Source of the DNA: a virus
Taxonomy: Duplodnaviria; Caudoviricetes
DNA length: 64,000 bases
Reading direction: 5' to 3' (one strand)
IMG/VR virus record: IMGVR_UViG_2824317532_000001
Coordinates: 40,923 to 104,922 of that record
Shown here: positions 32,217 to 59,636 of the stretch, piece after piece
Layout of the letters: the number at the start of each line of letters is the position of its first letter
How positions within the stretch are numbered: position 1 is the stretch's first letter
Program-made: the position numbers and the translations under genes
The notes under the pieces: model-generated
What the model saw: the letters and a program-made list of their open reading frames with translations, nothing else
Told to the model about the DNA's origin: nothing
The model's database searches: none

Positions 32217-32284
32217 GTAAGCAACGTACCACGCAACTTCATAGGTTGCTAGCAACAAATTAGAAGTTGCTTTAAGGTCGTTGC
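32217..32284. promoter_or_regulatory. Divergent promoter region with symmetric GCAAC/GTTGC operator array
   Basis: GCAAC at 32221, 32233, 32252; GTTGC at 32245, 32266, 32280; central palindrome GTTGCTAGCAAC; AT-rich. Confidence 0.65.
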
Positions 32285-32698: not shown

Positions 32699-34546
32699 AT
32701 GACGGTCCCCCACCAGGACCAGCGCCACAAGACCCGTAACGGGCATCCCGCCGCCGCCCAGTCGCCTGGACCCGGCAATCTCGCCGCGTTGCGGGTTCAC
32801 GAGCAGACGGTTCTGGGCTGGCTCCTGTCGCCGGCCAACCATGCCGAGGCGGAGGAGCGAGTTCGCGACCTCAGCATCCGGCATCTTGTTGAGCCTGCCC
32901 ACCGCGAGATCTTCGGCAGCATCCTGGCGCATGTCGGTGCCCCGAATCTGGCGCTGCTTGTCACCGCAGACCTGGCGACGGCGGATGCTCACCGTTCGGT
33001 GAAGGCGCTGCCAGGTGGGATTGCCGCATACCTGTCCGACTGCAAGGACTACGCCGACCTTTACGGCACACGGGAGTTCGCTTTCCACGTGCGGCAGGTG
33101 AAGGACGCCTACGTGCGCCGGCGGCGGCTGGAGCTCCACTCTCAGGCCGCGCGGGCTCTCGAGGAGGACAACCTCCAGGCGTACGACGCCGCGTTGGCGA
33201 ACATGCAGCATCTCGACGCGGATGCGGAACCTGCTGAGGATCCCGGAAGCGCACGCGACCGGGCACTGCAGCGGGCCATCGGCGATGCGGCTGCTGGTCG
33301 GTATTTGGCGATGCTGGCGGAGGAGATTCTTCGAACCCGGGCGCGGCGCGAGGCCCGCCAGTTCGTGGACGCCGAACTGGCTGACGTGTCACCGCTCGAG
33401 TTGCCCGTCTCGCTGACTGATCTTCTCGGCGAGGACGATGAACAGGACTCGTGGCGGATGTCCGGGTTGTGGCCGTCCGGTGCTCGGATCTTGTTGGCCG
33501 CGGGCGCGAAGTCGGGCAAGACGACGACGGTGGGGAACGTGGTGCGTTGCCTGGCCGACGGTGACCGGTTTCTGGGGATCGCCGACGTCGAGCCGGTGGC
33601 GCCGGGCCGGACTGTGGCGGTGCTGGATTACGAGATGCCCCGTGCGAAGGTGAGGGGCTGGTTACGTGACCAGCGGATCCGGAACACCGATGCGGTGCTG
33701 GTGTGGACGGAGCGAGGCAGGGCGGGGCGCTTTGATACTCGCGATCGGGCGGCACGAGTGCTGTGGGTGGAGCGTTTACGGACGGCGAACGTGTCGGTGT
33801 GGGTCATCGACTGCCTGTCGCCGGTGCTGTCGGCGTTGGGTATCGATGAGAACAACAACACCGAGGTCGGTGCTGTTCTCGACGGGATCAACACGATCGC
33901 TGCTGAGGCCGGCATTGATGATGTCCTGCTGATTCATCACATGGGGCATGGGGCGGAGCGGTCTCGTGGCGCGTCGCGGTTGATTGGCTGGCCGGATGTG
34001 AATTGGAAGTTGACTCGGCAGCGGGATGAGAAGGATCCGTCGGCGGAGCCGGATCCGAATGCGACCCGGTATTTCTCGGCGTACGGCCGGGATGTGGATG
34101 TTCGTGAGGGTCGGTTGGTGTTCGAGTCGGAGTCGCGGCATCTGACGTACATGGAGGGCGGCCGGAAGCAGGACGATGACACGGTCGCGCTGGGCAAGTT
34201 GTTGGTGTTTGTGCGGGATCATCCTGGGCTCGGGACTCGTGGCTTGCAGGAGGGCGCTGCGGCGCTGCTGGGGAGCAGGGATACGGTGCGGAAGGCGTTG
34301 AAGGCGGCGACGGCCAAGGGTTACGTCGTTGCGGCGGATGCTCCGCGTAACGGCTTGCAGCACACGATCTCGGCGTTGGGCCGGGGACAGATCTTGGCGT
34401 TGTCGTCGGTTCCGGTGAGTGACGCGGAGTTCCTTGCCGGTCCGCGGGGGAACGTGGTGTGCGACTGCGGCTACTACATCACTTCGGCGGCGTTCGAGGC
34501 TGGCGCTCGGTCGTGCATCGAGTGTTTGAAGGCGGTGCCGGCGTGA
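32699..34546 (+). CDS. DnaB-N-terminal-like + AAA_25/RepA-family (SF4) helicase
   Basis: EQTVLGWLL...PAHREIF (DnaB N); AAGAKSGKTT Walker A; VIDCLS Walker B; LIHHMGH..ERSRGAS...W.D; C-terminal HTH and Cys motif. Confidence 0.8.
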   Translation: MTVPHQDQRHKTRNGHPAAAQSPGPGNLAALRVHEQTVLGWLLSPANHAEAEERVRDLSIRHLVEPAHREIFGSILAHVGAPNLALLVTADLATADAHRSVKALPGGIAAYLSDCKDYADLYGTREFAFHVRQVKDAYVRRRRLELHSQAARALEEDNLQAYDAALANMQHLDADAEPAEDPGSARDRALQRAIGDAAAGRYLAMLAEEILRTRARREARQFVDAELADVSPLELPVSLTDLLGEDDEQDSWRMSGLWPSGARILLAAGAKSGKTTTVGNVVRCLADGDRFLGIADVEPVAPGRTVAVLDYEMPRAKVRGWLRDQRIRNTDAVLVWTERGRAGRFDTRDRAARVLWVERLRTANVSVWVIDCLSPVLSALGIDENNNTEVGAVLDGINTIAAEAGIDDVLLIHHMGHGAERSRGASRLIGWPDVNWKLTRQRDEKDPSAEPDPNATRYFSAYGRDVDVREGRLVFESESRHLTYMEGGRKQDDDTVALGKLLVFVRDHPGLGTRGLQEGAAALLGSRDTVRKALKAATAKGYVVAADAPRNGLQHTISALGRGQILALSSVPVSDAEFLAGPRGNVVCDCGYYITSAAFEAGARSCIECLKAVPA

Positions 34547-38480: not shown

Positions 38481-39323
38481 CTAGGCGGGAAGGTGATTGA
38501 TGGCGTCGAGGATGAGGTGGCGGGCGTCTTCGCCGGTGACGGCGTCCTGCCAGTAGCGAGCGAACAGGGCTTCGAGGATCTCCACCTTGTCCGCCAAATG
38601 TTCCTCGTCGGTGACGGCGGTTTCGATACATGCCTCGTCGTCGAAGATTTCGAACGATGATTCGGTGTTGCTGTTTACCGGCCGGGACAGGGACGGGTAG
38701 ATGGCGAGGGTGACGTTGTCGAGGCCGATGGCGGAGCTGAGGTGGAACAGTTGGGCTCGCATGATTGAGGTCGGGAATCGGCGTCGCCGGAGCACGGGCT
38801 CGTCGATGAGGAACGTGAACTGCTTGTCGGGGTCGGTGAGGAAGCGAACCGACTCCTGCCGTTTGCGGACGGCGGCGGCCACGTCGTTGACGCTGCCATG
38901 TTTGTCGTGGTGCTCCTGCAGGATGGCCCGCATGTAGTCGGGGGTTTGCAGGTAGCGCGGGATGAACGTCATCTCGAAGAACGTGAACCGCTTGGTGCGG
39001 GCTGCGCGTTTGGTGTAGTCGTCCTGGATGGGCTCCTGGCCATGGGCTGCGCGTTTGCTGTAGGTGTCGCGGCTGGCTTCGGCTTCGGCGGCCATGTGGA
39101 TGAGTTGGTCGCGGAGGCGTTCGTTCATGCCGGTGGCCTGCGCCCAGGCGGTGATTTCGTCGGCGGTGGGGATCTGTCGGCCGCGTTCGATCTTGGAGAC
39201 CTTGAACTTGCCGGTGCTGGCTGCCCAGCCGAGCATCTCGGCGAGTTCGGTGCCGGTGAATCGTGCGTTTTCGCGGGCGGCTTTGAGCCTGCCGCCGATG
39301 GGGTCACGTTCTTCGGTGGTCAT
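38481..39323 (-). CDS. XRE HTH + DUF5753 regulator
   Basis: GGRLKAARE..FTG.ELA...KVSKIERGRQIPT; IPRYLQTPDY; LIDEPVL. Confidence 0.85.
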   Translation of the reverse strand: MTTEERDPIGGRLKAARENARFTGTELAEMLGWAASTGKFKVSKIERGRQIPTADEITAWAQATGMNERLRDQLIHMAAEAEASRDTYSKRAAHGQEPIQDDYTKRAARTKRFTFFEMTFIPRYLQTPDYMRAILQEHHDKHGSVNDVAAAVRKRQESVRFLTDPDKQFTFLIDEPVLRRRRFPTSIMRAQLFHLSSAIGLDNVTLAIYPSLSRPVNSNTESSFEIFDDEACIETAVTDEEHLADKVEILEALFARYWQDAVTGEDARHLILDAINHLPA

Positions 39324-39942: not shown

Positions 39943-42900
39943 GTGACAGAGACTCCCCTGCCCCGGCCGGAATACCTCCTGGAGGATCCCGTGCCTAGTG
40001 CGACTCTCACCCGCACCTGCCCCGCCTACTGCGCACGCATCCACGACGAACAGCCCGACGAGGTCGTCGCCCACGAAACCCCCGTCGTTGGCATCCCCGC
40101 CCTCGGCAGCCGCCCGCTGCGACTGCAGATGTCACAGGCCGACTGCGACCCGGCGCCACGGCTGCACGTCGGCAGTTACGACCTGGACCTCTACAACGCT
40201 GAGCGGCTTCTCGCCGAACTGCATATGAAGGTCACGATCATGCGGGAGGCGCAGGCGCGTCTCCACGCCAGCCTGACGGTCGCCTGATGACCGGCACCGA
40301 CCGCGAGCGGCTCGACACCGCGCTCGCGAACCTCCGCGGCCAGGGTGTCGCCGTTGTCGTCGACCTGTCCGGCTCGTCGGGGGTCCGCGACTGGGACCAC
40401 GCCGACTATCTGAAAGCCGCCGCTACGGCGGGTACCGGCCGGTGGGTCGGCACGCATGTTGGCTGCGACGAGCATCGCGGGGCCTACTGGGACGCCGACG
40501 GCACCCTCCGGTACGGACACACCAACAAGCCGGTGACGGAGGTGTGGCTGCACCACAGCCATCCGGAGGTTGCCCGGCTGCTGGTCGACGCGCTGGCAGC
40601 CGCCGGGCTCGCCGTGTCGTGGGACGGCAACCCTGACAGCAGTGTCCTGCTCGCCCTGGCCGGTGGCCGATGATCGCGCTCGCCAGCACCCAGCGTTACC
40701 TGATCGACGGCGCCGTCCGCGACACGCTCACCTACCAGGACGGTGTGTTCCGGCTCGACGGCGTGCTGCTGCCCGAGCCGGACGCCCAGCAGGCGCGTGC
40801 GCTCGTGTTCGCCGGCCTGCTGGCCGTGAACCGCACGGACGTCCAGCCCACCACTACTGGCCGGGCTGCCGCCGGACTCCCCCACTGACCTTTCCCACTG
40901 ACGCACGACCCGTATCCGAGGAGGACCACATGTCCACCACCGTGTACGCCCCGCCCACCGGCGGCTTCGACGACTTCCGGCAGTGGCAGATCGAGCTGGA
41001 CACCAGTCGGCCGGCGCTGTCCGAGCCCCGGCTCCCCCATCACCCGTCCCGCGCCGCACTGCGCCGCGACGCCGACTCGCAGATCGCGGAGGGTGTCGCT
41101 GACTGGCTGCGCACCCACAGCAAGGGGGCGTGATGGCTACCTATTCGTGGGCGCTGATCCGTGACGGCCAGCCGGTCGCCGACGGTACCGAGTTTCACAG
41201 CGGGTTCGAGACGCCGGAGGAGTACGGGCGTTTCCAGGCCGCCCGGCCGCGGCCGTTCCCGGTGGACGAGGTTCACGTCTGGGCGGGTGACGTGCCGGCC
41301 GGTGAGCCGGTTCGGGTACGCCGGCACCCGCGGCGCCGGGCCCTGGCCGGAGCGGTGTCGTGACCGCCCAGGCCGCCCGCCTGATGCGGGCGCGTCGTGC
41401 CCGCCGCCTGCCGACCGCGCATGACGGGTTCGGCTACTCGCGGGACATGTCCGACCCGGAGCCCATGGCGGTACCCGCTGGGGTCGAGTTGGTCTGTCTG
41501 GACTCCCGCGGCGGCGCCCGATGACCGTCACGACCGCTCCCGCATTGACGTTCGCTGACATTCCCGGACAGCGCGCCTGGTACCGGGTCGACGACGTGTT
41601 CGACCCCGCCACCCGCATCCACATCGACGTGCCCTACCTGCATCACGACCTGGACTGCCGGTGGCCGGTGTATGACGACTACCGGGTCGTCACCCGTGGT
41701 GGTGCCAGCATCGTGGAGCAGGAGCCGTTCTTCGACGGCTGCGACTCGTGGGGTGATTCGTCGTGCCCCGACGCCCCGTTCGGGCATCGCCGGCCCGTAC
41801 CGGTCTGCCCCGCATGTGCGCCCGCCCTCACCGGCCGGAGCCTGTGATGGCGCCGCTGCCCGAGCCGACACCGCGGTCGTCCTGGCCGGACGACGAGCAC
41901 GCCACCTGCCCTCCCCCGTGCGGCGGACTGATGTCGGTGACCTCGTCCGGTGAGCTGCGCTGCGACGAGTGCGGCCTGCGCGCCGCCGACGCCTCCGTGC
42001 GGCAGGAGGTTCAGTGGTGACCGGCGCTGAACTGATCGTCGCCGCCGAGGCGCTGCACGCTTCCACTGTTCAGCCGTCCGACGATCCGACGCCCGGCCTG
42101 ATCCACCAGGCCGTCGTTGGCGCCGTCACTGCGTACGGGGTCGACGGCTGCGCGGCACGGCTTGCCCAGCGGTACGGCGACCACCCCACCGAGACAGCGG
42201 CCCGCATGCGGTGGTGCCTGGCAACTGTCCGAGCCGTCTACCCGGCCGTCACTGCCAGCACGGTCTGACCGGCCACCCGGCCACCAGCACCAACCGATCT
42301 AGCCCCCTGGATCGGTTGGTGCTGGTGGTCCGGCGGCCGGTCAGACCCCCTGGACGCCGAGAAACGAGGACCGATGTTCGGCATCACCCGCGACAACAGC
42401 CCCCAACCCGCCGGCCCGGCGGTGCCGCCCCTGCACTACCAGCACTGCCGCGAAGACGTTAACGCCTACTACCAACAGTTCGGCGACAAGTACGACTACG
42501 ACAAGAAGCTCGCGCTGGGCGTCGTGGACGCCGCCGAAGCCGCCGGCGTGTCCGTATGGAAGGCCCTTCCCACCGAAGACGGCTTCACCTACGAGTCGCG
42601 CCTCCGACTGGCCGCCGTGTGGAAGAAGGCAGGCCGCGGCCCGGCCGCCGACCGTGAGGAGTTCTACGCGTGAGCATCGACTACACCGGTGGCGTGGCCG
42701 GGCGGGATCCGATCGGCAAGACGATGGTCGAGTCGTTCCTCGCCCAGCATCCGAACGAGTCCGACGAGCAGATCCACGCCCGTATGTGCCGGGCGTGGAA
42801 CAGTGTTCCCGGCTCCGGCGAGATGCCGATTCCGGTCGACGAGATCGCCCACTGGCGGGCCGGATGGACGGCGCGGTGAACGAGCCCGACAACCTGACCG

Positions 42901-43896
42901 GCTGGGTCGATCGGCTCGGCGGCACATGGGTTCGGGTCGACGACTGCCCGGCGCCGTCGTACGCCATCTTTGCTGGCAGTTCGTGGTATCCCCGCACCGA
43001 TGGCCCCGGCTTCGATCCGCAGGTCCATGACGGTATCGGCCAGCCTCGGTCCTGGGATCAAGTCGAGTACGACTTCGCGCCGCTCACCCCGGCAAGCCCG
43101 GAGTTGACGGCGGAGACGATCGCGCTGGTGCGGCGGGCCGTATCCGAGTAGTGCCCGGCGGGTCGTAACAGACGAGACGGGCGGCCCGCAGCAGTGAGAC
43201 GCCGGGCCGCCCAACGATTCCTATCGGAGGAACCATGTTCAACGGTAAACGACGCTGGCGGCGGCAGCCGGTTCCGGTGCTCGACACCGCCGCCCAGGCG
43301 CTGGCCGAACTGCTGGCCGAGTCCGCACGCAAGCACGATGATCGGGAGCCGTTCCGTGGCTGACCTGCCCGCTGACCTGTTGATCGTGCGGCACGCCGAC
43401 GACACGACCACCACCTACGAGGACGTGCGCTACTGCCTGTGGCGTGACGGCGTGACCGTCTACCAGCATGGCGAGGAGATTCACCACGGCGATGTTGTCG
43501 AGGTGCGGGCCGAGCGGGCGGCGGTGCCGGCGTGAGCGCACGCGTCGGGACGCTCGACTACTACCTCGGCATGGACGCGGCCGAGCTGGACTTGCTGGAG
43601 CAGCGGGTCCAGGCTGAGCCCGCTGTTGGCTGGGTGGCGGAGACGGCGAAACAGCGGCTCCTCGACCGGATCGCCGCCGTGCGGGAGATGCGCGGCGAGC
43701 AGGTGGCCGGCTGATGGCGCGGGTGCTGGTGGTGTCGGATGACGGCGCGACCGTGATCCAGGTTCGTGACGCGGACCGCCCGGACGGTGAACCGTGGGCG
43801 GAAGGCGTGTGCCCGTGCGGTGAAGTCATCTCCGACCGCGGGCATTTCGAGGACACCGTGCAGGCGTGCGAGATCCATCTGGACGAGCAGCACTGA
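39943..43896 (+). CDS. Operon(s) of ~15 small early hypothetical genes (e.g. 39943-40287, 40287-40673, 40670-40888, 41133-41363, 41521-41847, 42017-42268, 42374-42673, 42670-42879, 42876-43151, 43235-43363, 43356-43535, 43532-43714, 43714-43896)
   Basis: Tightly packed, ATGA/GTGA-coupled GC3-rich ORFs; several carry CxxC motifs. Confidence 0.6.
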
Positions 43897-43897
43897 C

Positions 43898-43927
43898 AGC
43901 GCCCCGCCGAGATGTTGGCGGGGCGCT
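43898..43927. terminator. Hairpin terminator
   Basis: agcgccccgcc...ggcggggcgct between convergent genes. Confidence 0.65.
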
Positions 43928-43929
43928 CG

Positions 43930-44142
43930 CTATTTCATCGGCTTGCCGAGGTGTCGGTAGATCGTCTTTCGAGCCAGGTCGGCGGCCTCAGCAATTCGGT
44001 TGATTGGAACCCTTAGCCGCCCAGCCTCGACGATCAGTCTGTCGATCTGCTCCTCGATGGCTTGCCGTTGAGCGGCGAGGTTGACCAAGGCGAGCAGCAC
44101 CTTTTGCTGTTCGTCGTCGGGCTCGAAGGGTGGACGCGGCAC
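43930..44142 (-). CDS. Small HTH regulator
   Basis: LIVEA...VPINRIAEAADLARKTIYRHL. Confidence 0.7.
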   Translation of the reverse strand: MPRPPFEPDDEQQKVLLALVNLAAQRQAIEEQIDRLIVEAGRLRVPINRIAEAADLARKTIYRHLGKPMK

Positions 44143-44170
44143 ACGATCAGGCTATCGGTTCCTGTTCCCC

Positions 44171-44217
44171 TTGACCCAGTAACCTCGCCTGTTAGTGTTT
44201 ACATGTACTCAGTAACG
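44171..44217 (+). promoter_or_regulatory. Sigma-A-like promoter TTGACC-N16-TAGTGT with two CAGTAAC boxes
   Basis: AT-rich divergent gap; CAGTAAC immediately after the -35 and again near +1. Confidence 0.6.
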
Positions 44218-44231
44218 AGCCAGAGGCGACC

Positions 44232-47200
44232 ATGAGCGACTCACTTGACCGACAGGACGCATCAGGCTCCATGCCGCTGTCGATCTGTCACAACGGCCGG
44301 GTCCTCGCTTTGGTACCTGCGCACCTCGTCAACGACTTCGGAGCCGATGCGCGCCCAGCGCCCGCGTTGTGGGAGCACATCACTCGGGTCGCCGCGCTCC
44401 ATTGGCTGAGCCCGGACGACACCGAACTCCTGCTGCCCTGCCACCTACACCCGGCGTTCTCCGCAGTCGACTGCCTCGACTGCGAACCCGCCTGATCTGA
44501 AAGGAACCACATGCCTCACAGCGAGCAGGCCACCGCCGTCCTCACCGCGAACGAGCCGAAGGACGGCACCGTCCTTCTCGTGCGCAGCGGCGATGAATGG
44601 AAGGTCATTGAGCGCGACGACGCACTCTCCCGCGACTACGACCCACAGGACCACTGGTTCGATGTCACCACCGAAGCGATCGGCGACTCGGACCCGATGG
44701 CACTGCACCAGCACGTCAAGTACGCCGACGCCGTGTACGCGCTGGGCGAGAAGCTGGCCGAGTTCCGGTGAGCTACGACGTTCGTTTCACCGGCGAGATC
44801 GGCATCCATCCGCCCATCCCCGCCGACGATGTCATCGCCGCCGGGTTCCACGCCCCTGGCCGATTCGGTGACAAGGACGTGGCCGTAACGGTCATCGAAA
44901 CGCCGATCGACGGGGTGCCCGGCGCCTACCGGCGGCAGGTGACTGCGATTGCCGCTTGTATGGGTTCGTACACCGCCTACAAGGCTGTCGAGCATGTGCA
45001 GGAGATCGTGTCCCGTTGGGGTGAGGGCCGTACGTTTACCGGCTATCTGCAGGGCTGGGGTGAGGAACCCGGCGACGTGTTCCGAATCGTCATCCGTGAC
45101 GGCCGGGCAGTGGAGGTCCAGCCTCGGATCGTGTGGCCGGACGGATCGGAGGGCGTCTGATGATCGTGGACATCATCACCAAGACCGTCCGGATCCCGGC
45201 CAGCGAACACCACGCTGGCTTCCACTCCGTTGACGTCACCCTGATCTGGGAATGCCCAACCTGCGGCGGGCCGAGAGGCGAGGTCTTCGACACCCTCTCC
45301 TACGACGGATCACGTCGGCTCAACGTGCACGGATGGAAGAACCCATGCGGACACATCGACTACTACCGCGCCGTACGCCGCGAGGCAGGTATCGGCCAAT
45401 GACTGCCATCACCCTGGACCTGGTGCTCGCCGTGCACGCGGCTGCCGACCTGGGCGGTGACACCGGTCTAACGGTCGACTCGATCGCCGCGATGACCAAC
45501 CTCGCCGTTGAGGACGCCGAGCAGGCGCTGGAATCCGGTGCCCGCCGCGGCATCGTGTCCCGTCTCGGCGACGGCCGCTGGATTGCCTGGCCGATCTGCC
45601 CCACCTGCGGGTACGGCGCCGACGACCGGCATCACTCCACCGACCATCCGCAGCCGGGCGTCTGTGAGACGCACCCGGTGGACTACTGCGCCGGCTACCC
45701 GCTCCCCCGCTGACTTGGAGGCCACTATGCCCCGCACCATCGATTCGATGCTCGCCGCGCACCGCGTGGCCACCGAGCGCCGTAACAACGGCCAGCCCGT
45801 CTGGGACGAGACCGTCGACCTGGCCGACCTGTTCCACAACACCGACCTGTCCCAGGCCGAGCGGTACGCCCGCATCGCCGACCGGATCAAGCGTTCGCGC
45901 TGGTACCAGAACCGGGACGCGGACGGTTTCGACGAGTTCGGGGAGGCCGTCGAGAACCTAGCGGTCGCTTCCGGGCCGGACGAGTTCGACGGCTGGTTCG
46001 ACGAGATTTACGACCAGGCTGACCGCGACCGGGTTTGGATCAAGACCCGATGATCGCCTACTTCACCGTCGACAGCGACGGCCGCCTGCCCCGCCAGGAC
46101 GGCACCATCAGGGTCGACGGCCAGGACTACCTACTTCCGATGAAGGCACAGGTGGGTGGTTTCCTGGCCCCACGCCGCATCCTGGAAGGGCTGCAGGCTG
46201 CCGGCTGGAAACCGGCCACCGACTACTACTCCGATTTGGACGTGGACGGACCTGGGTCGATCCGGGTGGTTCCGCTGGACGGCGACGCCTGATGGCTGCT
46301 CAACACATGGTCACCGAACACGCCGTGTGTGCCCTGCCCGGCGACCACCGGGATTGGCGACACCTGGTCATCCGGGTCCAGCGTCGGGGCGCCACCGATC
46401 GGTGGCTGGTGACCTGGGGCGCCTACTACTTGACCGCCGACGGCGACTGGTATCCGTCCATGTCTCGGGCGGTCGAGTACGACGAGGACGAGGCCCTGAT
46501 CGCCGCCGACATGGTGTCTAAGACGGTCGACGTGAATGGTCTGACCGCCGCCGACCTGCTCAACCGTTGAGGAGCCCGCAATGTTGACTGAAAGCCACAC
46601 CACCAGACCCGCCGACAACGGCACCTACCACTACTGGGAGGTTCGCGGCCCGTACGGCGCCGTCTCCCTGTCGCTGCTGCATTCCCGGGCCGCCGGGTTC
46701 ACGTCGCTGGCCCGAATGAGCCCTGCCCTGGCCGGCAACCTGGCGCCCACTGAGTCCGGGCACTGGGTGTTCAACGTGATTGGCGAGCACCGCCCGAACG
46801 GGCCCGAGTCAGGCTGGTCGTGCTCGGTGCACGGCGATACCTGTGATGAGGACGCGATCGTCACCGATCTGGCCTGGCCGATCTGGGAGCGGCTGCGTGA
46901 CGGCGGTGTCACCGACCGGGCGGTGTACGCCGAGTTGGAGGCGCTCGCCGGCCGGGTGTTCGAGGTGGCGGCGTGACTGCGGTGCCCTTCGCTGTCGAGT
47001 GGGTGTTCCTCGACGAGTCCACCCCGCGCCAGATCCACACCAGCACTGTCACCGCGGTTGACGCCGACGATGCGCGGATGACGCTGCTGGGTTCCATACC
47101 TGAGGACCGGGTGTCGGTCCTCAGGGTTTCTGCCGAGGAGGACCAGCAGTGAGCACCGACCACGGCCCGTACATTGCCGCCGTTCAGGAGGCGCTGATTC

Positions 47201-48993
47201 ATGCCGGGTTCGAGACCCTGAACGAGCACGCCGAGGACGAGGATCCGCGCGGCGGTGGCATCCAGCTCGACCCCCGGTCGCCGGCTGCGGCGGACTGGTT
47301 TGCGAACTGGGATGAGGTGTGGCTGGGCTGGAACGAGGACCGCGGCTGGGCGCTGGTCTGCACCGAGGAATTAGCCGGCGGCGAGCCGAAGACGTTCACG
47401 TTCGACTCGCACCTGCCGCGGCTGGCGGCGCCGGTGTCGGTCGTGCGCATGGCGTGCGGGCACGCTGGCGTGTCCGTGCAGGCCATCGATGCCCTGCCGG
47501 AGCCGGCCATCCCGGACGCCGACTTCCCCGGCCACAGCTTCCTGGACGACGATCCCGTGTTCGAGCAGGCGCTGGCCCGCTACCGGGAGCCGTCGTGCCC
47601 ACGGTCCTGATCCGCTGGCACACCCCGTCGGCATTGACGATCTACGCCGACGGTAAGCCGATCGGGTCAGCGTCCGACGACTCCGATTTTCCCGACGAGC
47701 CGCCGCTGTCGACGCCGCTGGTTGCCGCGGTCGTGGCGGAGGATGTGGCCCGCGCTTTGGGCGCCGACGTCAAGGTGCAGCGGCCGTGAGCGCCCGTGAC
47801 ATCACCGCTGACACGGTGCTCGCCGCGATCGCGGCCGGCGCTTCCACCCGCACAGATCTGGCCGCCCGGTTTCAGGTGCTGTCGACGTCCCGGTTCCTGA
47901 CGGATGCGCTCGCCGAGCTGGGTGTGGTCGAGGACGCGCACGGCCGGCTGTCTGCGCCTGCCCTTCCGTGCCCGACGTGCGGCTTAAGGCCGTGGGATGC
48001 GCCCGACCTGACGCCAGGCGAGTTCGTGTGTACCTGCAACGACACCTTCGAGGAGATCTGATGACCTCTGTTCCGCAGTACGTGATCCTGCACCGTCGGG
48101 ATCGCGGCAGCGAGGCTACTGAGCAACTGTTCAGCGTGTGGCCCGAAACCGACCGGGCGCAGGCCGTCGAACACGCGGCCGAACTGCAGTCCGATGCCAA
48201 CAACCTGTACGGCCGGCCCCGTGACACGTATCGGGTCGCGCGGCTCGCATTCCTGGACGAGGAGAACTGAACCATGGGACATGACGATCGACTGGAACTA
48301 ATGGCGGCGGACCACGACCGGTTCCGGGCCGCACTGGTGCAGATCATTCTGGTGGCGGATGGTGGGGCCGAGGCGCCGCACACCGCGCTGGAGAACATTC
48401 GGGCCGAGGCCAACAAGGCGCTCGCCGAGGCGGGTGCGCAGTGACCGCCACGATGACGCCGCCCGCGTCCACCACGATGCCGCAGTCGCAGGATCCGCGG
48501 GTGTTGCGGGAGATCCTGGACGACCCGAACCTGTCCGGCTGGCACGAGGCCGCCCATCTCGCGCTGGAGGACCTGGAGCAGCGGATCGGCCGGCACGTCC
48601 GCCACGGGCTAGGTGCCTGATGGGCGACGAGACGCCTGCTCTGACGGTGGTCGGCATGGGTCTGTTCCCGCTGCCGGGTGAGAAGAAGCGGCGTCAGCGG
48701 GCGGTTGCGGAGGCTCGGGAGCTTCTCCGCCAAGTGGCGGAGATCGAGCAGCGGAGTAGCGGGCACACGAGAGTTGAGGGTGAGCAGTGACCGGCGAGCC
48801 GCAGGAGACGTACTACGTCGAGTATCCGTGTGGGAAGTACTGCAAGGTCGAGATCGATCTGGCGGAGGCTCACGGCGGGTTCACGCACCGGCAGATGCGT
48901 GCCGCGGCGGACGTCCAGCATGCGGAGCGGCACGAGTTGGAGTCGACGCCGGTGCTGGCCCGGGTTTCTGCGGAGTTCCGGGCTCCGGCGTAG
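44232..48993 (+). CDS. Operon of ~18 small, mostly acidic hypothetical genes (e.g. 44232-44495, 44511-44771, 44768-45160, 45160-45402, 45727-46053, 46292-46570, 46581-46976, 47149-47610, 47786-48061, 48061-48270, 48787-48993)
   Basis: Coupled small ORFs downstream of the promoter at 44171. Confidence 0.6.
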
Positions 48994-49025
48994 GCTCACC
49001 CCACCCGTGTGATCTTGGAGGCGTC

Positions 49026-49502
49026 ATGCAGTTGGTCGACGTACTGGACCTGCTCCAACGGCTGTTCGTTGCCGCGCAGCATCCGGACGTTGCCGACGTG
49101 CGCCTCTACGGGGAAGGCACCCCGCAGTCGCCGGCCGGGGTTGCGGTGAAGGACACGCGGGGCGGTTCCACCTACCTGTGGGGCACCACCTGGCGGGGCG
49201 AAACCCCGGTCGACCTGCCGGAGGTGCTGCCGCCGCCGAAGCTCGGCGCCCAGCGGATCGCCGTGCTGGCGGTCAAGCTGCTCGATGCTGCCCGCCCGGC
49301 CGAGTTGAAGGCGTGGCGTTTGGTCGCGCTGCCGGATCTCGGCCCGACGGATGCTCGTGGTGTCGCGCCGGCCGGGGTCGGCCTGGTCGCCGCGGACGGC
49401 AGCCGGTTCCTGTTGCGGGCGACGCATGGTGGTTCGCAGACCGGTGACCCTGCCGAGGATCCGCACCCGGAGTGGCGGGTGCCGGAAGCACTGGCCATCT
49501 GA
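49026..49502 (+). CDS. Hypothetical protein
   Basis: GGAGG RBS + ATG; GC3-rich. Confidence 0.6.
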   Translation: MQLVDVLDLLQRLFVAAQHPDVADVRLYGEGTPQSPAGVAVKDTRGGSTYLWGTTWRGETPVDLPEVLPPPKLGAQRIAVLAVKLLDAARPAELKAWRLVALPDLGPTDARGVAPAGVGLVAADGSRFLLRATHGGSQTGDPAEDPHPEWRVPEALAI

Positions 49503-49509
49503 CCTGACA

Positions 49510-49544
49510 AAAAGGCCCTGTGCTGTTACGGCACGGGGCCTTTT
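49510..49544. terminator. Bidirectional intrinsic terminator
   Basis: aaaaggccctgtgc...gcacggggcctttt. Confidence 0.75.
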
Positions 49545-49654: not shown

Positions 49655-51709
49655 TTGAGCAGCGACCGCGACCCACGTCGACGCTTCAGTAACCGGCAAC
49701 GCAACCTGCTCTACATCTCCTCCGACGGCACCTGCGAAGAATGCGGCAACCCGCTGCCGCCCGGATGGCATGCCGACCACAAAAAGGCCCACACCCACGG
49801 CGGGGCCACCGAACTCGTCAACGGCCAAGCGCTCTGCGCTGGCTGCAACCTGCGCAAAGGAGCCCAGCCCATGGCCTACGCCGACACATTCAAACCCCGC
49901 CCGTTCCAAGGCGAGGTCGTCAAAAGCGTCCTCGACGGTTTCTCCTCTGACCGGAAAACCACCGTCGTCCTCGCCAGCCCCGGCTCCGGCAAAACCCTCA
50001 CCTACCAGGCCGTCGCCACCTACCTGTACCGGGAAGGCCTCATCGACTACGCCGCCGTGTTCGTACCCCGCCTCGTTCTTGCCCGCCAGTGCGAAGTGTC
50101 ATGGCTGCACCGCCTCGACCAGCCCGAACCGAACGGCAACATCTTCGGCGGCGACCATCGGCTGTTCGACTCCCGAAGCCGTCTGTCTGCGTTCCGGCAC
50201 GTCCCGAACCGGCTGCCGCTTATCCCGCCGGGTGAACGCGGCGTCGGCATGGTCACCACCTATTCGGCGTTGGTGAAGTCTCCCGACATCTACATCGACC
50301 ATTGGGCCGCCAAGAACAAAGGCCGGTTCCTGCTGGTCGCCGACGAAGCCCAGTTCTGTGGAACGTCCGGCGACGACGACGAGACCGGTGGAACCGCGGC
50401 CGGCCGGTGGATGCGGGAGATGCACGAGTACGCCGCCCACACGCTGCTGCTGACCGGAACGCCGTACCGTTCCGACGGCCAGCCGCTGATCCTCGCCGAC
50501 TACGAACCGGAGGACGAGGAAGGGAAACGCAAACTCGTTCACCATGCCGAGGCCGGCTATGCCACGGGCATCGCGGAGGGCTATCTGCGGCGCTTCGAAG
50601 CGACGATGATCGACGCCCGGGTGCGGTACAAGTACGTCGACAACACCGTCAACGAGTACGACCTGTCTCTCAGTGGCGCAGACCTGCGGGAAGTCATGTG
50701 TAAGCCCGACGTGTGGAAGCCGATCGCGGACGAGGTTGTTGCCGCGGTGCGGGAGAAGCAGCGCTTGCACCGCTCGTATCGCGGTCTGATCTCGTGCATG
50801 CAGCAGAGCGAGGCCAAGGCGGTGGAGGCGTACCTGCGTCGCCAGTACCCAGACCTCAAGGTGATGATCTCCGTTTCCGGTGATGGCGAGGAGGCCGAAC
50901 GGTCGCTGCGCAACTTCAAGTCCCAGGCCGCCGACGTGCTGGTCACGGTCCGTAAGGCGTTCATCGGCTATGACTGCCCCGAGATCACGGTGGTGGGGGT
51001 GCTCACCAACTACCGCGACTGGGGGCACTTGTCGCAGTTGGTGGGCCGAGGGTTGCGCATGTGGAAGGGCGCCGAACGGCGGGGCCAGTCGTGTCGTGTG
51101 ATCTGCCCCGACGACCCTGAGATGACGAGGTTCATCGAGTTCATGCGTGGCGAGTCGGAGCAGGGGCTGCGGGAGCGTGCGCGCCGTGAGGCCGACGCGG
51201 ACCGGGAAGCGGGCGCAAGCCGCACCCGAGAGGACGAACTCGGCTGGGTCGAGTCGGCGCACGCTACCCAGGTCAGGGCTGTCGGTAACGATTCGGAGGT
51301 GGACGCCGATGAGTTGATGCTGATTCGGGCGATCAAGCACGACATCGACTCGGTGGAGGACGTGACGAAGCTGAAGGAGTTCGCCGAGAAGTTGGGGCTG
51401 CGACTGTCGGAGATGGCCGCCACACGCGCCGATGTTCCTGAACAGGCTCTGCCGGTGTCGACGGCGGCACCACTGACCGAGCAGGAGCAGATCAAGGCAA
51501 TCAACCGGGAGACCAGTAAGGCCATCACGTCGTATCTGGCGCGGCGGGGCATGGACCCGAAGCACCCGCAGTTCCGGGCGAACGTGAAGCGGGTGACGGC
51601 GTCCGTGAACGCGGCGGCGGGCTGCTATGCCGATGACGTGTGGACCGTTGAGCAGGCGTTGAAGAGGTTGAACACGGCCCGCTCGCTGCCTGAGGAGGCG
51701 ATCGTGTGA
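49655..51709 (+). CDS. HNH endonuclease fused to an SF2 (ResIII/DEAD-like) helicase
   Basis: CEECG...HADH...GG.T...NGQALC..CN..KG; PRPFQ Q motif; ASPGSGKT; VADEAQ; LTGTPYRSD; GYDCP; QLVGRGLR. Confidence 0.85.
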   Translation: MSSDRDPRRRFSNRQRNLLYISSDGTCEECGNPLPPGWHADHKKAHTHGGATELVNGQALCAGCNLRKGAQPMAYADTFKPRPFQGEVVKSVLDGFSSDRKTTVVLASPGSGKTLTYQAVATYLYREGLIDYAAVFVPRLVLARQCEVSWLHRLDQPEPNGNIFGGDHRLFDSRSRLSAFRHVPNRLPLIPPGERGVGMVTTYSALVKSPDIYIDHWAAKNKGRFLLVADEAQFCGTSGDDDETGGTAAGRWMREMHEYAAHTLLLTGTPYRSDGQPLILADYEPEDEEGKRKLVHHAEAGYATGIAEGYLRRFEATMIDARVRYKYVDNTVNEYDLSLSGADLREVMCKPDVWKPIADEVVAAVREKQRLHRSYRGLISCMQQSEAKAVEAYLRRQYPDLKVMISVSGDGEEAERSLRNFKSQAADVLVTVRKAFIGYDCPEITVVGVLTNYRDWGHLSQLVGRGLRMWKGAERRGQSCRVICPDDPEMTRFIEFMRGESEQGLRERARREADADREAGASRTREDELGWVESAHATQVRAVGNDSEVDADELMLIRAIKHDIDSVEDVTKLKEFAEKLGLRLSEMAATRADVPEQALPVSTAAPLTEQEQIKAINRETSKAITSYLARRGMDPKHPQFRANVKRVTASVNAAAGCYADDVWTVEQALKRLNTARSLPEEAIV

Positions 51710-52356
51710 CCGGTATGCGTGAGGTGTCGATGCCTGAACTGACCGATGAGCAGCGCCGGGTGCACCGGGCAGGGGAGGCGCTGCATCGCGATGGAGCGTC
51801 GCCGGCCGGGGCGCTGGATCTCCTTGCGGCGATTGTCGAAGACCGCACGTGGGAGCGGATGTGTGACGCGAAGGGGGTGTCGTTCGCGGGCCGGTTCCGG
51901 GACTTCGTTGAAGCGCGAAAGCCGTTTGGTCTGGGCTTCGATCCGGACCAGCTGCCGAAGGTCCTTGGCCTGCGTCATCCCCACGAGGCGGTTCCAAAGG
52001 TTGCCTACCGCATAGCTGCAATGCGAGATCAGGTGAAGACGTTGCTCCTGTCGGAGATTCCCATTGCCTCGTCCAGGGGAGGAGATCGACGCTCTGACTA
52101 CCTTCAAAACAGTGCCACTGTTTTGAAACGAGAAACAGCTGATCACATTCTTTCCAGACTCAAGTCATCCGCTCCTGAGATGGCCGCTCGCGTAATCTCG
52201 GGCGAATTGACCGCCAATGCCGCCGCGCATCAGTTGGGTTGGCGTCGCCCACGCATCGTCGTGTCTTCCCCTGAGCGGGTGGCTGAGGCGCTGCGCCGCA
52301 CCATGGATCCGGACGACATCAAGCGGTTGGCCGCAATTCTCGGTGGTGATGAGTGA
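51706..52356 (+). CDS. Hypothetical DNA-binding-like protein coupled to the HNH-helicase
   Basis: GTGA overlap; GGDRRS motif; C-terminal domain paralogous to the next gene. Confidence 0.65.
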   Translation: MTGMREVSMPELTDEQRRVHRAGEALHRDGASPAGALDLLAAIVEDRTWERMCDAKGVSFAGRFRDFVEARKPFGLGFDPDQLPKVLGLRHPHEAVPKVAYRIAAMRDQVKTLLLSEIPIASSRGGDRRSDYLQNSATVLKRETADHILSRLKSSAPEMAARVISGELTANAAAHQLGWRRPRIVVSSPERVAEALRRTMDPDDIKRLAAILGGDE

Positions 52357-52592
52357 CTGTGCACCGCGGCACCAGTCGCCGATACGCCTTGAATCGCCTT
52401 GAGCGCGACGCGCCGGAGTTGTATCAGCAGGTGGTGCAAAAGAAGATGACAGCGCATGCTGCCATGGTTCAGGCCGGCTTCCGCCCACCAACATTTACGG
52501 TCCGTGCGGACTCGGCGGAACAGGTGGCTGAGACCTTGAAGCGGCGCCTTCCGCCGGAGATGGTGGCCGAGCTGGCGGCGAAGCTGGCCTGA
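52353..52592 (+). CDS. Small paralog of the C-terminal domain of 51706-52356
   Basis: RL..(D/S)APE....V....(L/M)TA.AA....G(W/F)R.P...V...E.VAE.L.R shared between the two. Confidence 0.65.
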   Translation: MTVHRGTSRRYALNRLERDAPELYQQVVQKKMTAHAAMVQAGFRPPTFTVRADSAEQVAETLKRRLPPEMVAELAAKLA

Positions 52593-52664
52593 GCGCAGTA
52601 GGCCCTGGGTTTCGGTCCGGGGCTCTCTGCTGCCCATTCCATGATCATGCGCTACAGTCACGTC

Positions 52665-52755: not shown

Positions 52756-53598
52756 ATGGCGCCATGGAACGGCGGTCTCATCGGCGACGTAGACGACGTC
52801 CACGCCGCTCTCGCACGCGTCAACCAGCAGGCCCAGACTCGCGGCACCACCGCCCTGCTGACCCAGCCGGTCACCACCGGCGACGACATCACCCCCGCCA
52901 CCACCCAACTGCTGCCGTGCGATCCGCAGATCCTGCCGCTGCTGCCGTGGACCGGCCTGCGCCGCGGCACCACGATCGCGGCGGTCGGTTCGACCAGCCT
53001 GCTCATCACCCTGCTCGCCGCCGCCATGCGCGACACCGGCAGTTGGGCTGCGGTTGTCGGGAAACCCGAGTTCGGGTGCCTCGCCGCCGCAGAGGCCGGC
53101 GTGCCCCTCGACCGGCTCGCCCTCGTGCCGGAGCCCGGCCCGGACTGGCCGACCATCGTCGCCTCCCTGCTCGACGGCATCGACCTGGTCGCCGTTCAAC
53201 CTCCGCCCGGCACCAGCGACACGGTCATGAAGGCTCTGTCGGCGCGGGCCCGACAGAAAGGCGCCGTCCTCATCCCCACTCGCGCTTGGACGGGCGCCGA
53301 AGTCGTCCTCGAGGTGACCGGCCGCCGCTGGCACGGACTCCGTGACGGCGGCGGCCGCCTCCGCGACAGCCAGATCGACGTGCGGGCGGCCGGGCGCGGT
53401 AGGGCTGTCCGGCCGAAAACGGCCACCCTTGCTGTCGGTGACACCCGCCCGCCGATCCAGATTCCGGCGTCGCCCGTCGATGCCGGGCCGCCGCCAGCGG
53501 CGGGCAACGCCCTGTGGGAGCGTGTGGAACCGTTACCGCCGCCTGCCGACCTGTGGGCGGGCATGCGTGTCCCCGTCACGGGCCGGCGGCTGAGTTAG
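52756..53598 (+). CDS. imuA: ImuA'-like (Rv3395c-type) RecA-fold protein
   Basis: LLP..GLRRG...GSTSLL..LLA...GSWAAVVG.P.FG.LAAAEAGV.LDRLALVP.PG......LLDG.DLV...L.ARARQ.GAVL; degenerate Walker A. Confidence 0.8.
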   Translation: MAPWNGGLIGDVDDVHAALARVNQQAQTRGTTALLTQPVTTGDDITPATTQLLPCDPQILPLLPWTGLRRGTTIAAVGSTSLLITLLAAAMRDTGSWAAVVGKPEFGCLAAAEAGVPLDRLALVPEPGPDWPTIVASLLDGIDLVAVQPPPGTSDTVMKALSARARQKGAVLIPTRAWTGAEVVLEVTGRRWHGLRDGGGRLRDSQIDVRAAGRGRAVRPKTATLAVGDTRPPIQIPASPVDAGPPPAAGNALWERVEPLPPPADLWAGMRVPVTGRRLS

Positions 53599-58139: not shown

Positions 58140-58394
58140 ATGACTTCTCCGAGCCCACTGCAGGTCCTCATGGCCCGCCGCATGCTCGCCACCTGCAACC
58201 CGCGACAGATCCGTGAAGACGCCGATCTCACTCAGGCAGAGATGGCTGTACTCGTCGGTGTCAGCGCCTCCGCCATGAGCCGCCTCGAAGCCGGCAACCG
58301 CAAACCCTGGTCGAAGACCGCTGTCCGTTGGGCCGGCATCCTCGCCCAACTCCAGGCCCAAGGTGCCATCTACGACCGGGCCATCGCCGCCTGA
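58140..58394 (+). CDS. Cro-like XRE HTH protein (leaderless)
   Basis: RQIREDADLTQAEMAVLVGVSASAMSRLEAGNRKP; divergent from GntR. Confidence 0.8.
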   Translation: MTSPSPLQVLMARRMLATCNPRQIREDADLTQAEMAVLVGVSASAMSRLEAGNRKPWSKTAVRWAGILAQLQAQGAIYDRAIAA

Positions 58395-58518
58395 AACGAC
58401 GAACGCCGGGGTTTGCAGACCCCGGCGCCGACACCCTCGAAAGGCGCAACCTCGTGGCCCCAGAGTACGACGCCCCGGCGTCGTCGAGCACCGTCACGCC
58501 CGCCCCGGCGGCGCGCTG

Positions 58519-59622
58519 ATGGGTTACAAGCTGCGCCGAGAAGTGCGCGACTTGCTCTGGGCCGGAGCTCTCACCGCCTCCGAACGGGTTCTGCTTCTTG
58601 AGCTCGCCGACAACGCCAACGACGACACCCGCGTGGCATACCCCGGCATGGGCTGGATCCTCGCCGCATGCGACATTCCGAGCAAGAAGCGCGCTGGGGA
58701 GCATCTGGCATCGATCGCCGCGAAGTGGTTCGAGATCCGCGTCGAGGTCGGCAAGGACAAGAACGGCAACGCGCTGTACGCCATGCCGAAGATTCAGACG
58801 CGGTACCGGTTCCCGACTCGGGATGAGTTGGTGGCCCGGCACGGCGAACGGAAGGTCCCCAAAATTCAGGGACTTGACGCCTGCAAAGTCCCTGAAAATC
58901 AGGGGCCTAAGGTCCCTGAAAATCAGGGTGCTGACGGCCCGAAGGCCCCTGATTTTCAGGGACCCTTCTCCTCAAAGAACTTCTCTCCTCAAAGTTCTAA
59001 CTCCTCACCTCCCCCTACCCCCTCGTTGTTCGGCACCGACCACGTCGTGATCGACGCCGAAATCGTGGAGGAGGCGGAGGAGATTGATGCTTCGCCAGAA
59101 ACCCAACTTCAAAACCTCACCGACCAGATCCGGGCCATCCGCCCCAACTGGAACCCAGCCGAGATCCGCCGGCACCTCGACGCAGCACTCCGTCTCGTCG
59201 ATGAGAACTTCGAAGCCCTCACCACGCTCGCCGTGAACACCGCCAAGGACCGCAGCACCGCACAACCATCCCGGCTGACCGCATCCGGAAACCCCCATCT
59301 TCAAAGGGTCGGCCTGGCGTTGCTCGTTGCCCGCGCCGACGCCATGCCCGACACCGGTCCGATCAAGCCGCTGCATCCCAACGCGCACGTCTTCCAGCCG
59401 AAGACGGACGGCTCCAAGGTGTGCGGCTGGAACGAGTGCGAACTACCTGAGGCCAACGACCGGCACCGGGTCGGTAACCGCGACGGCGGCTATGTCGGCC
59501 AGACCCGGTCAAGCCACACCGATGGCCTCGACGAATACGGCAACGGCTTCCGTAAAGGCGGCACCCGCCATCACCTGACCGATTCGCGGGCACCGAACCG
59601 CGACTACAGCGAACCGCTCTGA
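58519..59622 (+). CDS. Replication initiator-like protein (N-terminal wHTH, internal iterons)
   Basis: LTASERVLLLELADNANDDTRVAYPG; KVPENQG peptide repeats reflecting DNA iterons. Confidence 0.7.
   Translation: MGYKLRREVRDLLWAGALTASERVLLLELADNANDDTRVAYPGMGWILAACDIPSKKRAGEHLASIAAKWFEIRVEVGKDKNGNALYAMPKIQTRYRFPTRDELVARHGERKVPKIQGLDACKVPENQGPKVPENQGADGPKAPDFQGPFSSKNFSPQSSNSSPPPTPSLFGTDHVVIDAEIVEEAEEIDASPETQLQNLTDQIRAIRPNWNPAEIRRHLDAALRLVDENFEALTTLAVNTAKDRSTAQPSRLTASGNPHLQRVGLALLVARADAMPDTGPIKPLHPNAHVFQPKTDGSKVCGWNECELPEANDRHRVGNRDGGYVGQTRSSHTDGLDEYGNGFRKGGTRHHLTDSRAPNRDYSEPL
58852..58962. repeat. Four palindromic iterons CCCTGA(A/T)4CAGGG-like within the initiator gene
   Basis: aaggtccccaaaattcaggga, aaagtccctgaaaatcagggg, aaggtccctgaaaatcagggt, aaggcccctgattttcaggga, followed by a pyrimidine/AT-richer tract. 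Confidence 0.8.
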
Positions 59623-59636
59623 CGAAAGGACCCGCG

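Follow-up and report, generated by a model that had tools for sequence, protein, structure and literature searches.

We analyzed a 64,000-nucleotide stretch of a Caudoviricetes genome (IMG/VR record IMGVR_UViG_2824317532_000001, positions 40,923 to 104,922; hereafter the window, with positions counted from its first letter) and followed up a cassette of three genes, HEL, p216 and p79, that lies within it. The HEL gene was 100% identical to a stretch of contig NZ_BMPW01000020.1 from Actinoplanes campanulatus JCM 3059, and the element that carries the cassette is an A. campanulatus prophage. An earlier note on this DNA, made from the letters alone, had described three open reading frames (ORFs), translationally coupled to one another and insulated by a terminator hairpin on either side. 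The coordinates, lengths and strand of all three ORFs were confirmed (Table 1), and the HEL/p216 and p216/p79 junctions were both found to be 4-nt GTGA overlaps, in keeping with the proposed coupling, with GTG as the start codon of p216 and p79 beginning in like manner on the p216 stop. The upstream hairpin lies directly 3′ of the stop codon of the preceding ORF and parts the cassette from the upstream early operon; its folding energy was −34.5 kcal/mol (z −6.0, 0 of 200 shuffled sequences equally stable), and it is terminator-like in both directions. Insulation was seen on this side only, because the downstream hairpin did not stand out from chance (−25.5 kcal/mol, z −1.75, 10 of 200 shuffles equally stable). 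A consensus terminator scan reported neither of the two. Third-position GC was 0.66 in p216 and 0.75 in p79, compared to 0.84 in HEL and 0.86 in the ImuA′-like gene that follows the cassette, and the lower values could stem from another origin or from other constraints.

Table 1. Position of the cassette, its parts and other annotated features in the window.
Feature	Position	Strand	Description
HEL	49655-51709	+	684 aa; HNH nuclease, SF2 motor and C-terminal extension of ~200 aa
HEL, HNH domain	49733-49864	+	residues 27-70; CxxC...DH...N...CxxCN
HEL, SF2 helicase/translocase core	49889-51073	+	residues ~79-473; motifs Q, I, Ia, II, III, V, VI
HEL, C-terminal extension	51107-51706	+	residues 485-684; acidic, pI 5.0; conserved within close clade
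p216	51706-52356	+	216 aa; N-domain, linker and C-domain
p79	52353-52592	+	79 aa; stand-alone copy of the C-domain
Upstream hairpin	49510-49544	+	15-bp stem, 5-nt loop, flanked by A run and U run
Downstream hairpin	52590-52636	+	after p79 stop; weak; no U tract
Tape measure protein	9010-12333		phrog_4197, 7.6e-77
Tail-region protein	14981-17875		phrog_5313
AAA_25 primase/helicase-like protein	32699-34546		
XRE-type repressor-like gene	38481-39323	-	

The description of HEL as an N-terminal HNH nuclease followed by a set of superfamily 2 (SF2) helicase motifs was borne out, so that a nuclease-helicase cassette does lie within a window of phage genes. Pfam HNH (PF01844) matched residues 27-70 with 33.9 bits (cut-off 21.4; 3.5e-8) and ResIII matched with 34.2 bits (cut-off 22.5). 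Helicase_C reached 19.8 bits, under its cut-off of 23.5, and the C-terminal RecA-like lobe was supported by the conservation of motif VI and by XPB and RadD profile matches that spanned both lobes. Motifs I/Walker A (ASPGSGKT), II (DEAQ, residues 230-233), III (TGTP) and VI (QLVGRGLR) are kept in relatives. Residues C27, C30, D41, H42, N56, C61, C64 and N65 of the HNH domain were invariant in an alignment of 25 close members. When 15 divergent members, down to 13-24% identity, were aligned, H42, G110, G112, K113, D230, E231, Q461, R465 and R468 remained invariant and N56, T114, T269 and G464 were at least 90% conserved; the Cys pairs of the HNH domain were absent from three of these divergent members (L020, L022 and L031; L numbers denote individual loci). 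The DEAQ sequence, which the earlier note had regarded as atypical, is present and invariant in the close clade and is confined to it, with DE[IVC]H in distant members, and it is a clade variant of DExH.

Searches of the Protein Data Bank (PDB) with a profile of the HEL family placed its motor closest to XPBII (5.7e-25), Rad25 (2.6e-23) and RadD (2.8e-23), followed by type I HsdR (1.2e-19) and the type ISP enzymes LlaBIII (1.9e-14) and LlaGI (3.9e-14). The NCBIfam equivalogs scored far under their cut-offs on HEL (RadD 35 bits vs 720; type I R, for example, 28 vs 550). Homologues of HEL are common in Streptomyces, Kitasatospora, Micromonospora, Nonomuraea and others, where they are annotated as ‘HNH endonuclease’ or ‘DEAD/DEAH box helicase’ only. 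The C-terminal extension matched no named family, with all leads from the Atlas search below threshold, and it could serve as a docking region for the partner protein. A comparison with PADLOC-DB v2.0.0, a check proposed in the earlier note, returned no defence system; HEL gave partial matches to the helicase core or the HNH domain alone, the best being PbeA (8.2e-6, residues 76-236), and p216 and p79 gave none.

The p216 protein belongs to a family of proteins of ∼215 amino acids. At 90% identity the family falls into 108 clusters, for which no Pfam domain is recorded and the sources give the name ‘hypothetical protein’, the one exception being ‘MerR regulator’. No match to p216 was found in Pfam, PHROG or NCBIfam, which agrees with the earlier view of an undescribed cassette whose partner protein is of no recognized family. 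An AlphaFold model of p216 (predicted local distance difference test, pLDDT, 80) contains two helical domains at residues ∼14-116 and ∼145-212, referred to here as the N-domain and the C-domain, joined by a low-confidence linker (∼121-144). The GGDRRS motif to which the note had drawn attention is present but falls within this variable linker, and it is not a family motif, with GD[RH]RS being found in 6 of 36 aligned relatives. The most conserved element of the family is instead the core of the C-domain, which reads roughly GTSxxYTLxRLKRDxPELxxxVxxGELSANAAAIxAGFR. A profile of the C-domain matched 4,292 representative clusters at E ≤0.001 and 1,873 at E ≤1e-10. Among the best 150 of these clusters, the N-domain was also present in 82, the C-domain occurred alone in 68 and two C-domain stretches were seen in 5; 35 of the 68 C-domain-only clusters are of ≤135 amino acids, and these may in part be fragments.

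The relationship between p79 and the C-domain was evident from an identity of 41% with residues 147-213 of p216 (E 2e-13), and thus the duplication described in the earlier note is upheld. The p79 protein is basic, with an isoelectric point (pI) of 10.3, and its structure model had a pLDDT of 85. In a tree of C-domains, which was built on a short alignment and has many unresolved forks and weak resolution elsewhere, the C-domain of the window p216 grouped with its orthologues (support 99/97), while p79 was placed outside the p216 clade, beside the 100-amino-acid stand-alone protein P0333 (91/94). On this tree, p79 is an old paralogue that diverged long ago rather than a recent copy of the p216 next to it. 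A grouping of p79 with P0230, P0277, P0375 and P0333 as one ‘second-repeat’ subtype was considered and found no support, since it required three changes on the tree and formed no single clade.

Fold and profile searches were performed with both partner proteins. The p216 model gave no Foldseek match at E ≤0.001, and its best VIA match (Z 5.4, root mean square deviation 4.0, 87 residues aligned) was of the kind seen as noise among helical proteins; no convincing fold match was obtained for p79 (best Foldseek E 5, best VIA Z 3.0). These nulls are no proof of new folds. Sequence-profile searches of the PDB with p216 and with the C-domain returned chance-level rows only (CdvB, 0.067 and 0.14). In the ESM Atlas, p216 fell among unnamed, mostly viral clusters, and rows for ParB/HTH_ParB had TM values of 0.26-0.38, under the bar of the tool. 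Pfam showed no HTH_ParB in the p216 C-domain or p79, and VIA alignment to pNOB8 ParB was weak (Z 2.2-2.3). A local match of 23 residues by hidden Markov model (HMM) was obtained to one cargo protein of the phage hotspot described below (9.1 bits, compared to a best of 3.6 in 500 shuffles); we take this cargo protein to be ‘ParB-like’ on our own reading. A ParB/Srx-like nature of the C-terminal extensions of P0367 and P0336 was considered and not confirmed, with 0 Pfam families matched at E ≤0.01.

We then asked which of the three genes occur together elsewhere. A scan of viral contigs with a profile of p216 yielded 31 loci, in which HEL and p216 were called with HMMs built from divergent members; the set includes near-identical loci (L017/L018, L024/L025/L027 and L028/L030), and L007 and L003 share a contig. 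HEL directly precedes the p216-type gene in 27 of the 31 loci, and in 27 of the 28 informative ones, as L012, L015 and L019 have no usable upstream DNA. The sole exception was L010, where p216 is truncated (3242-3640) and no HEL lies upstream. In L032 (2657-4482), HEL is broken over three frames and the C-domain is retained only in part, and both L032 and L010 are decayed copies of the module. The two ORFs overlapped in all 18 gene-called pairs, by 4-55 nt. Conversely, p216 was found downstream in 7 of 7 loci seeded with HEL, 6 of them on contigs already in the set, plus L042; this reverse test is narrow, since the scan relied on close alignment via the DEAQFCG pattern and reaches close relatives alone. 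Of 50,697 phage records, one alone, that of Saccharomonospora phage PIS 136, has HEL or p216, and there the two genes are both present and adjoin each other (PIS_093 and PIS_094).

Clustering of neighbouring genes revealed no further neighbour conserved across the loci. A second copy of the C-domain was present in the window and in L005 only, where it is a 49-codon remnant. The co-occurrence that the earlier note had looked for in its three-gene unit thus holds for HEL and p216, and fails for p79. Taken together, these results show that p216 is an obligately linked, translationally coupled partner of HEL, and that the conserved unit is the HEL-p216 pair, with p79 as a local extra.

A sister form of the pair was identified on Streptomyces plasmids. 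Full-length HEL homologues of 46-49% identity were present in 11 plasmid records, which include SAP1 (twice) and two S. rimosus records, and were followed 10 nt further on by a hypothetical protein of 426-454 amino acids. This plasmid partner matched the HMM of the p216 N-domain (1e-15 to 1e-19), with no match to that of the C-domain, and its residues 123-222 resemble mycobacteriophage proteins annotated as MerR-like helix-turn-helix (HTH), with up to 45% identity (4e-13). The plasmid partner keeps the N-domain and not the C-domain, which marks the former as the constant companion of HEL. Comparison of the phage and plasmid sequences shows the partner to be made up of a constant N-domain and an exchangeable second module.

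The pair lies ≤15 kb from the record end in 9 of the 11 plasmid records; the four that were checked are all linear, and HEL does not face the record end in the same way in all 11. A gene for a ‘terminal protein’ is found ∼1 kb downstream of the pair in the S. albidoflavus plasmid. In pSRIMHP, the terminal position is taken by a separate DEAD/DEAH helicase of 941 amino acids, which matched the HEL HMM only marginally (1e-3), and HEL is located 2 kb further in. Annotated neighbours of the plasmid HEL genes include SLATT with a nucleotidyltransferase, a restriction endonuclease and a zeta-toxin family protein. Upstream of the plasmid pair in L043, L046 and L047 we also observed a gene for a large HTH regulator (547-752 amino acids) followed by one for a protein of 185-191 amino acids; these two recur in SAP1, the S. 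albidoflavus plasmid and pSRIMHP, and may form with the HEL pair a wider conserved subtelomeric block.

Analysis of the phage loci showed that the pair is frequently found near replication genes. A replication-initiator gene directly follows p216 in L009, L016, L017, L021 and L029, as judged by PHROG matches, and by cluster membership one follows in L013, L014, L018 and L032 as well. A DnaC-like loader lies nearby in L008 and, by cluster, in L006 and L010; L033 has an Erf-like protein close by, L034 a primase and L031 a repair exonuclease. In PIS 136, a 95-kb phage, the pair sits among genes for a methylase, Pol III epsilon, a YqaJ-type exonuclease, VRR-NUC and dCTP deaminase. XRE-type repressor genes are located just upstream and divergent in L014, L016 and L020, and in L003 a 401-amino-acid XRE-family regulator lies upstream, with a convergent XRE-like gene and a cro-like gene after the pair. 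In most loci, then, the neighbours of the pair are genes for replication or recombination, or the pair comes right behind a switch of the repressor/cro type; such positions would normally be silent in lysogens.

Our tentative reading, held with somewhat less than even confidence, is that HEL and p216 constitute a horizontally mobile, accessory two-protein module for DNA processing, a nuclease-translocase, which is found in actinobacterial phages and, in a sister form, on linear plasmids of Streptomyces. The HNH nuclease, an XPB/RadD-like ATP-driven SF2 motor and the C-terminal extension are supplied by HEL, and p216 is made together with it through translational coupling. Since the N-domain always accompanies HEL, it may bind or control the enzyme, while the C-domain may read DNA and set where HEL acts, because it is replaced on plasmids by a region that resembles MerR-like HTH proteins. 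The leads to DNA recognition by the second module are this HTH-like replacement, the basic pI of p79 and the weak ParB-type matches. The module is envisaged to act on DNA of the element itself, in early lytic development upon induction or once a phage or plasmid has entered the cell, at ends, nicks or branched replication and recombination intermediates, where HNH would cut and the motor would unwind or translocate. p79 stands outside the core and may add a DNA site or compete for one; its role as a regulator or dominant-negative partner, put forward in the earlier note, is conjectural. The earlier note had proposed a ‘defence or DNA-processing system’; DNA processing fits the data, and we found nothing that speaks for defence in particular: no PADLOC model matched beyond the helicase core, and the context is mostly that of replication, recombination or repressor/cro-type genes. 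Defence expressed in the lysogen appears less likely than processing of the element's own DNA.

Several observations weigh against a role in DNA processing, and the chief argument among them, as far as a core role in replication is concerned, is the accessory distribution of the pair. In five loci (L022-L025 and L027, three of them near-identical to one another) the gene order is terminase large subunit (TerL; phrog_15), HEL, p216, a small gene and portal (phrog_21). Portal directly follows p216 in L019 and TerL is 2 kb downstream in L012, and adjacency to TerL or portal is restricted to these seven loci, to the exclusion of the window and most other loci. We collected 32 loci with the TerL of L024 as seed (63-100% identity). 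The site was empty in 14, where TerL is followed after 71-253 nt by a gene for 84 amino acids, x84, and portal. HEL-p216 lay between TerL and x84 in 4 (L025, L027, L048 and L049, the last running to the contig end), and the remaining 14 held other inserts of 1.1-2.5 kb, some with a TerL 99% identical to that of cassette carriers. Phages with TerL proteins 99-100% identical may thus hold HEL-p216, other cargo or nothing at this site.

A similar picture was obtained with the replication initiator of the L016 type. Among 11 loci seeded with it, 6 non-L016 loci have ≥3 kb of upstream DNA, and HEL-p216 was found in 0 of these 6 informative relatives, being present only on L016's own contig. L016 and L024 have related TerL proteins and carry the cassette at different genomic positions. 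The cassette is accessory and mobile, and is dispensable for replication in at least two phage groups. Such presence and absence at hotspots is typical of conflict genes and of homing elements; it argues against a core replication role and sustains both of these readings. Further points that count against processing of the element's own DNA are found in the window, where the cassette lies behind a strong terminator with its own upstream spacer of 110 nt, a moron-like arrangement, and in the fold searches, which provided no structural support for DNA binding by the C-domain (best VIA Z 3.0, best Foldseek E 5).

The TerL-x84 interval of L048-L077 is itself a cargo hotspot, with at least five gene sets besides HEL-p216. 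Nine of the 14 loci with other cargo were inspected, and these encode a 365-amino-acid SF2 helicase without HNH together with a 177-amino-acid protein, a 97-amino-acid HNH protein, and others. They also include proteins of 258-268 amino acids and larger with a DGxHR/DGxNR motif (L050, L051, L054, L060 and L077), which we presume from the motif to be ParB/Srx-like.

A role in conflict between elements is possible, but we consider it rather unlikely. The pair, carried by a prophage or plasmid, could act in defence or superinfection exclusion by recognizing foreign DNA on its arrival and degrading it, with p216 as sensor or specificity factor and HEL as effector, or could provide an early nuclease for counter-defence or host takeover. 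Nuclease-helicase enzymes, of which Hna, Nhi and Hachiman are named examples, are common defence effectors, and the HEL core resembles HsdR, LlaBIII and LlaGI. In near-identical phages the cassette alternates with other DNA-acting cargo at the hotspot, and its distribution is sporadic; as an accessory hotspot gene set, it may serve defence or competition between elements. The strong terminator that sets the window cassette apart from the early operon, the L003 cassette, which is convergent with a repressor gene and outside the cro-side operon, and the SLATT, restriction endonuclease and zeta-toxin family neighbours on plasmids would also fit. On the other hand, PADLOC models matched only short helicase stretches of HEL and nothing in the partners, the cassette is not accompanied by a methylase gene or any other gene for self-protection, most loci lie beside replication genes, within operons that a lysogen should keep silent, and in PIS 136 the pair belongs to a block of DNA-metabolism genes.

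A bolder proposal, which we regard as unlikely, is that phages and linear plasmids use the pair against each other as a partner-guided nuclease-translocase. The second module, a C-domain of varying clade in phages and a MerR-like HTH region on plasmids, would programme the target, the helicase would turn a cut into destruction of the rival genome or into gene conversion that spreads the cassette, and p79-type proteins would be decoys or immunity factors on the carrier's own site. If true, homing and exclusion would here be combined in one helicase-assisted element of an undescribed kind.

More doubtful still is a purely selfish cassette of the homing type, in which p216 would pick a site in cassette-free relatives at co-infection, HNH would cut it, the helicase would aid end processing and repair would copy the cassette, while the carrier would gain little. 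A homing gene is expected to be scattered among close relatives, filling a fixed site between conserved genes in some and missing from it in others, and this was indeed observed (4 loci with the cassette, 14 empty and 14 with other inserts, of 32), and insertion between TerL and x84/portal is precise. Besides the HNH nuclease, the presence of the cassette at two genomic positions in phages with related TerL types (L016 and L024), the decayed copies (HEL in three frames in L032, truncated p216 in L010, the p79 remnant in L005) and the variation of the partner's DNA-side module, as shifting target specificity would need, are consistent with such an element. However, known HNH homing endonucleases are small and free-standing, whereas HEL has a 600-amino-acid motor with all its ATPase motifs intact down to ∼13-24% identity, which indicates selection on helicase function. 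Moreover, the hotspot holds many unrelated cargos, so that the TerL/x84 site itself may be permissive.

Finally, a packaging cofactor, in which the HNH-helicase assists terminase at cos/pac cleavage in the manner of terminase-associated HNH proteins and p216 is a DNA-recognition subunit of the small-terminase type, would account for the loci next to TerL and portal (L022-L025, L027, L019 and L012) and for a weak PHROG match (8e-4) between HEL and a family labelled ‘terminase small subunit’, but is highly improbable, given that this match covers the HNH region and is accounted for by the HNH domain, that p216 matches no terminase family, that the window and most loci place the pair far from packaging genes, and that near-identical phages package without the cassette. 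The ranked readings leave a small part of the probability unassigned.

The pair gives a functional anchor, in the form of an HNH-SF2 enzyme, an N-domain tied to the helicase and a second module that can be swapped, to the very large unnamed family of C-domain proteins, with its 4,292 representative clusters. The module links the early regions of phages with the subtelomeric regions of Streptomyces linear plasmids, and its analysis exposed the cargo hotspot between terminase and portal genes. If the partner directs the enzyme to chosen DNA, HEL-p216 would represent a small nuclease-motor for targeting, modular by nature, and would add a new factor to the competition among phages and between phages and plasmids.

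The remainder of the window contains further genes of the prophage (Table 1). Small plus-strand ORFs, from ∼39943 to 49502, run up to the cassette, and no tRNA genes or att-like direct repeat pairs were found in the window. Directly 3′ of the cassette lies a stand-alone ImuA′-like gene (52756-53598, plus strand; NCBIfam NF058630, 7e-49, 165 bits vs a cut-off of 65), with no evident imuB or dnaE2 partner among the flanking ORFs. A tblastn search of the 50,697 phage records gave no match to its product, and the other HEL loci lack a counterpart. At 58852-58932 there are three tandem copies of ∼24 nt of the AAAGTCCCTGAAAATCAGGGGCCT type, each an imperfect palindrome, which are iteron- or operator-like; they sit inside a 419-amino-acid ORF (58363-59622, plus strand) that gave no PHROG match and no tblastn match among phage records. 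A 19-nt element, GAAAGGACCCGCCATGACC, occurs in four copies (89-100% identical) at 59624, 60108, 61874 and 62090 on the plus strand. These mark the starts of successive plus-strand ORFs, and resemble a repeated context of ribosome-binding site and start codon. The minus strand also carries three large ORFs of high third-position GC, at 25078-27510 (810 amino acids), 27529-28776 (415 amino acids) and 30711-32297 (528 amino acids). They lie between the regions for tail and replication, and had no Pfam or PHROG match at E ≤0.001.

We compared the pair with known systems. XPB/Rad25 and RadD are the closest relatives of the HEL motor among solved structures, by profile, and share with HEL the logic of a helicase that works with a nuclease, as archaeal XPB pairs with the nuclease Bax1. 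In HEL, the nuclease is an HNH domain and is fused to the motor, and only the motors are alike; no relation of p216 to Bax1 or to any solved protein was detectable. HsdR and the type ISP enzymes LlaGI and LlaBIII have the same order of parts, namely an N-terminal nuclease, an SF2 translocase and a C-terminal helical part, which in HsdR docks onto a separate DNA-recognition complex. A weak lead in the Atlas, EcoEI_R_C for the C-terminal extension of HEL (0.76, 13% share), lies under the bar of the tool. HEL differs from these enzymes in having HNH in place of a PD-(D/E)xK nuclease and in lacking a linked gene for a methyltransferase or specificity subunit.

With the nuclease-helicase anti-phage effectors, the cassette shares a nuclease and a helicase in a short operon, carriage on mobile elements and a patchy distribution at hotspots. 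It differs from them in that no PADLOC-DB v2.0.0 model extends beyond the generic helicase core and in that it lies mostly in replication or early modules. Likenesses to HNH homing endonucleases and to the terminase-associated HNH proteins of cos phages, of the HK97 gp74 type, are the HNH domain, the insertion between TerL and portal in some phages and the presence or absence among close relatives. Unlike these, HEL is fused to a complete, conserved motor of 400 amino acids and always comes with a partner gene.

A Cas3-like protein with a C-terminal HNH domain (bioRxiv 10.1101/2025.09.30.679098) is unrelated to the case of HEL. The full-text literature search returned no phage or plasmid system in which an HNH-SF2 helicase is joined by a partner of the p216 type, although supplementary figures S4-S7 of bioRxiv 10.1101/2024.11.13.623437 may show the pair. 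TtrA, a DEAD-box helicase of Streptomyces linear replicons, is described as subtelomeric and as needed for conjugal transfer of SLP2 (PMC8743542; bioRxiv 10.1101/2024.11.13.623437), and in the second of these sources as having tandem helicase-associated (HA) domains. Both HEL and TtrA are SF2 helicase genes near the ends of linear Streptomyces plasmids. HEL carries an N-terminal HNH domain, however, and no HA domain among its Pfam matches at E ≤0.1, and the terminal-most, usually inward-facing place of TtrA is not that of HEL, as seen from the 941-amino-acid helicase of pSRIMHP and from the mixed orientation among the plasmids. HEL is not TtrA, and the description of TtrA sets the two apart. 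Nuclease-helicases as such are well known; what sets the HEL-p216 pair apart is its obligate, putatively adaptor-type partner from a large unnamed family.

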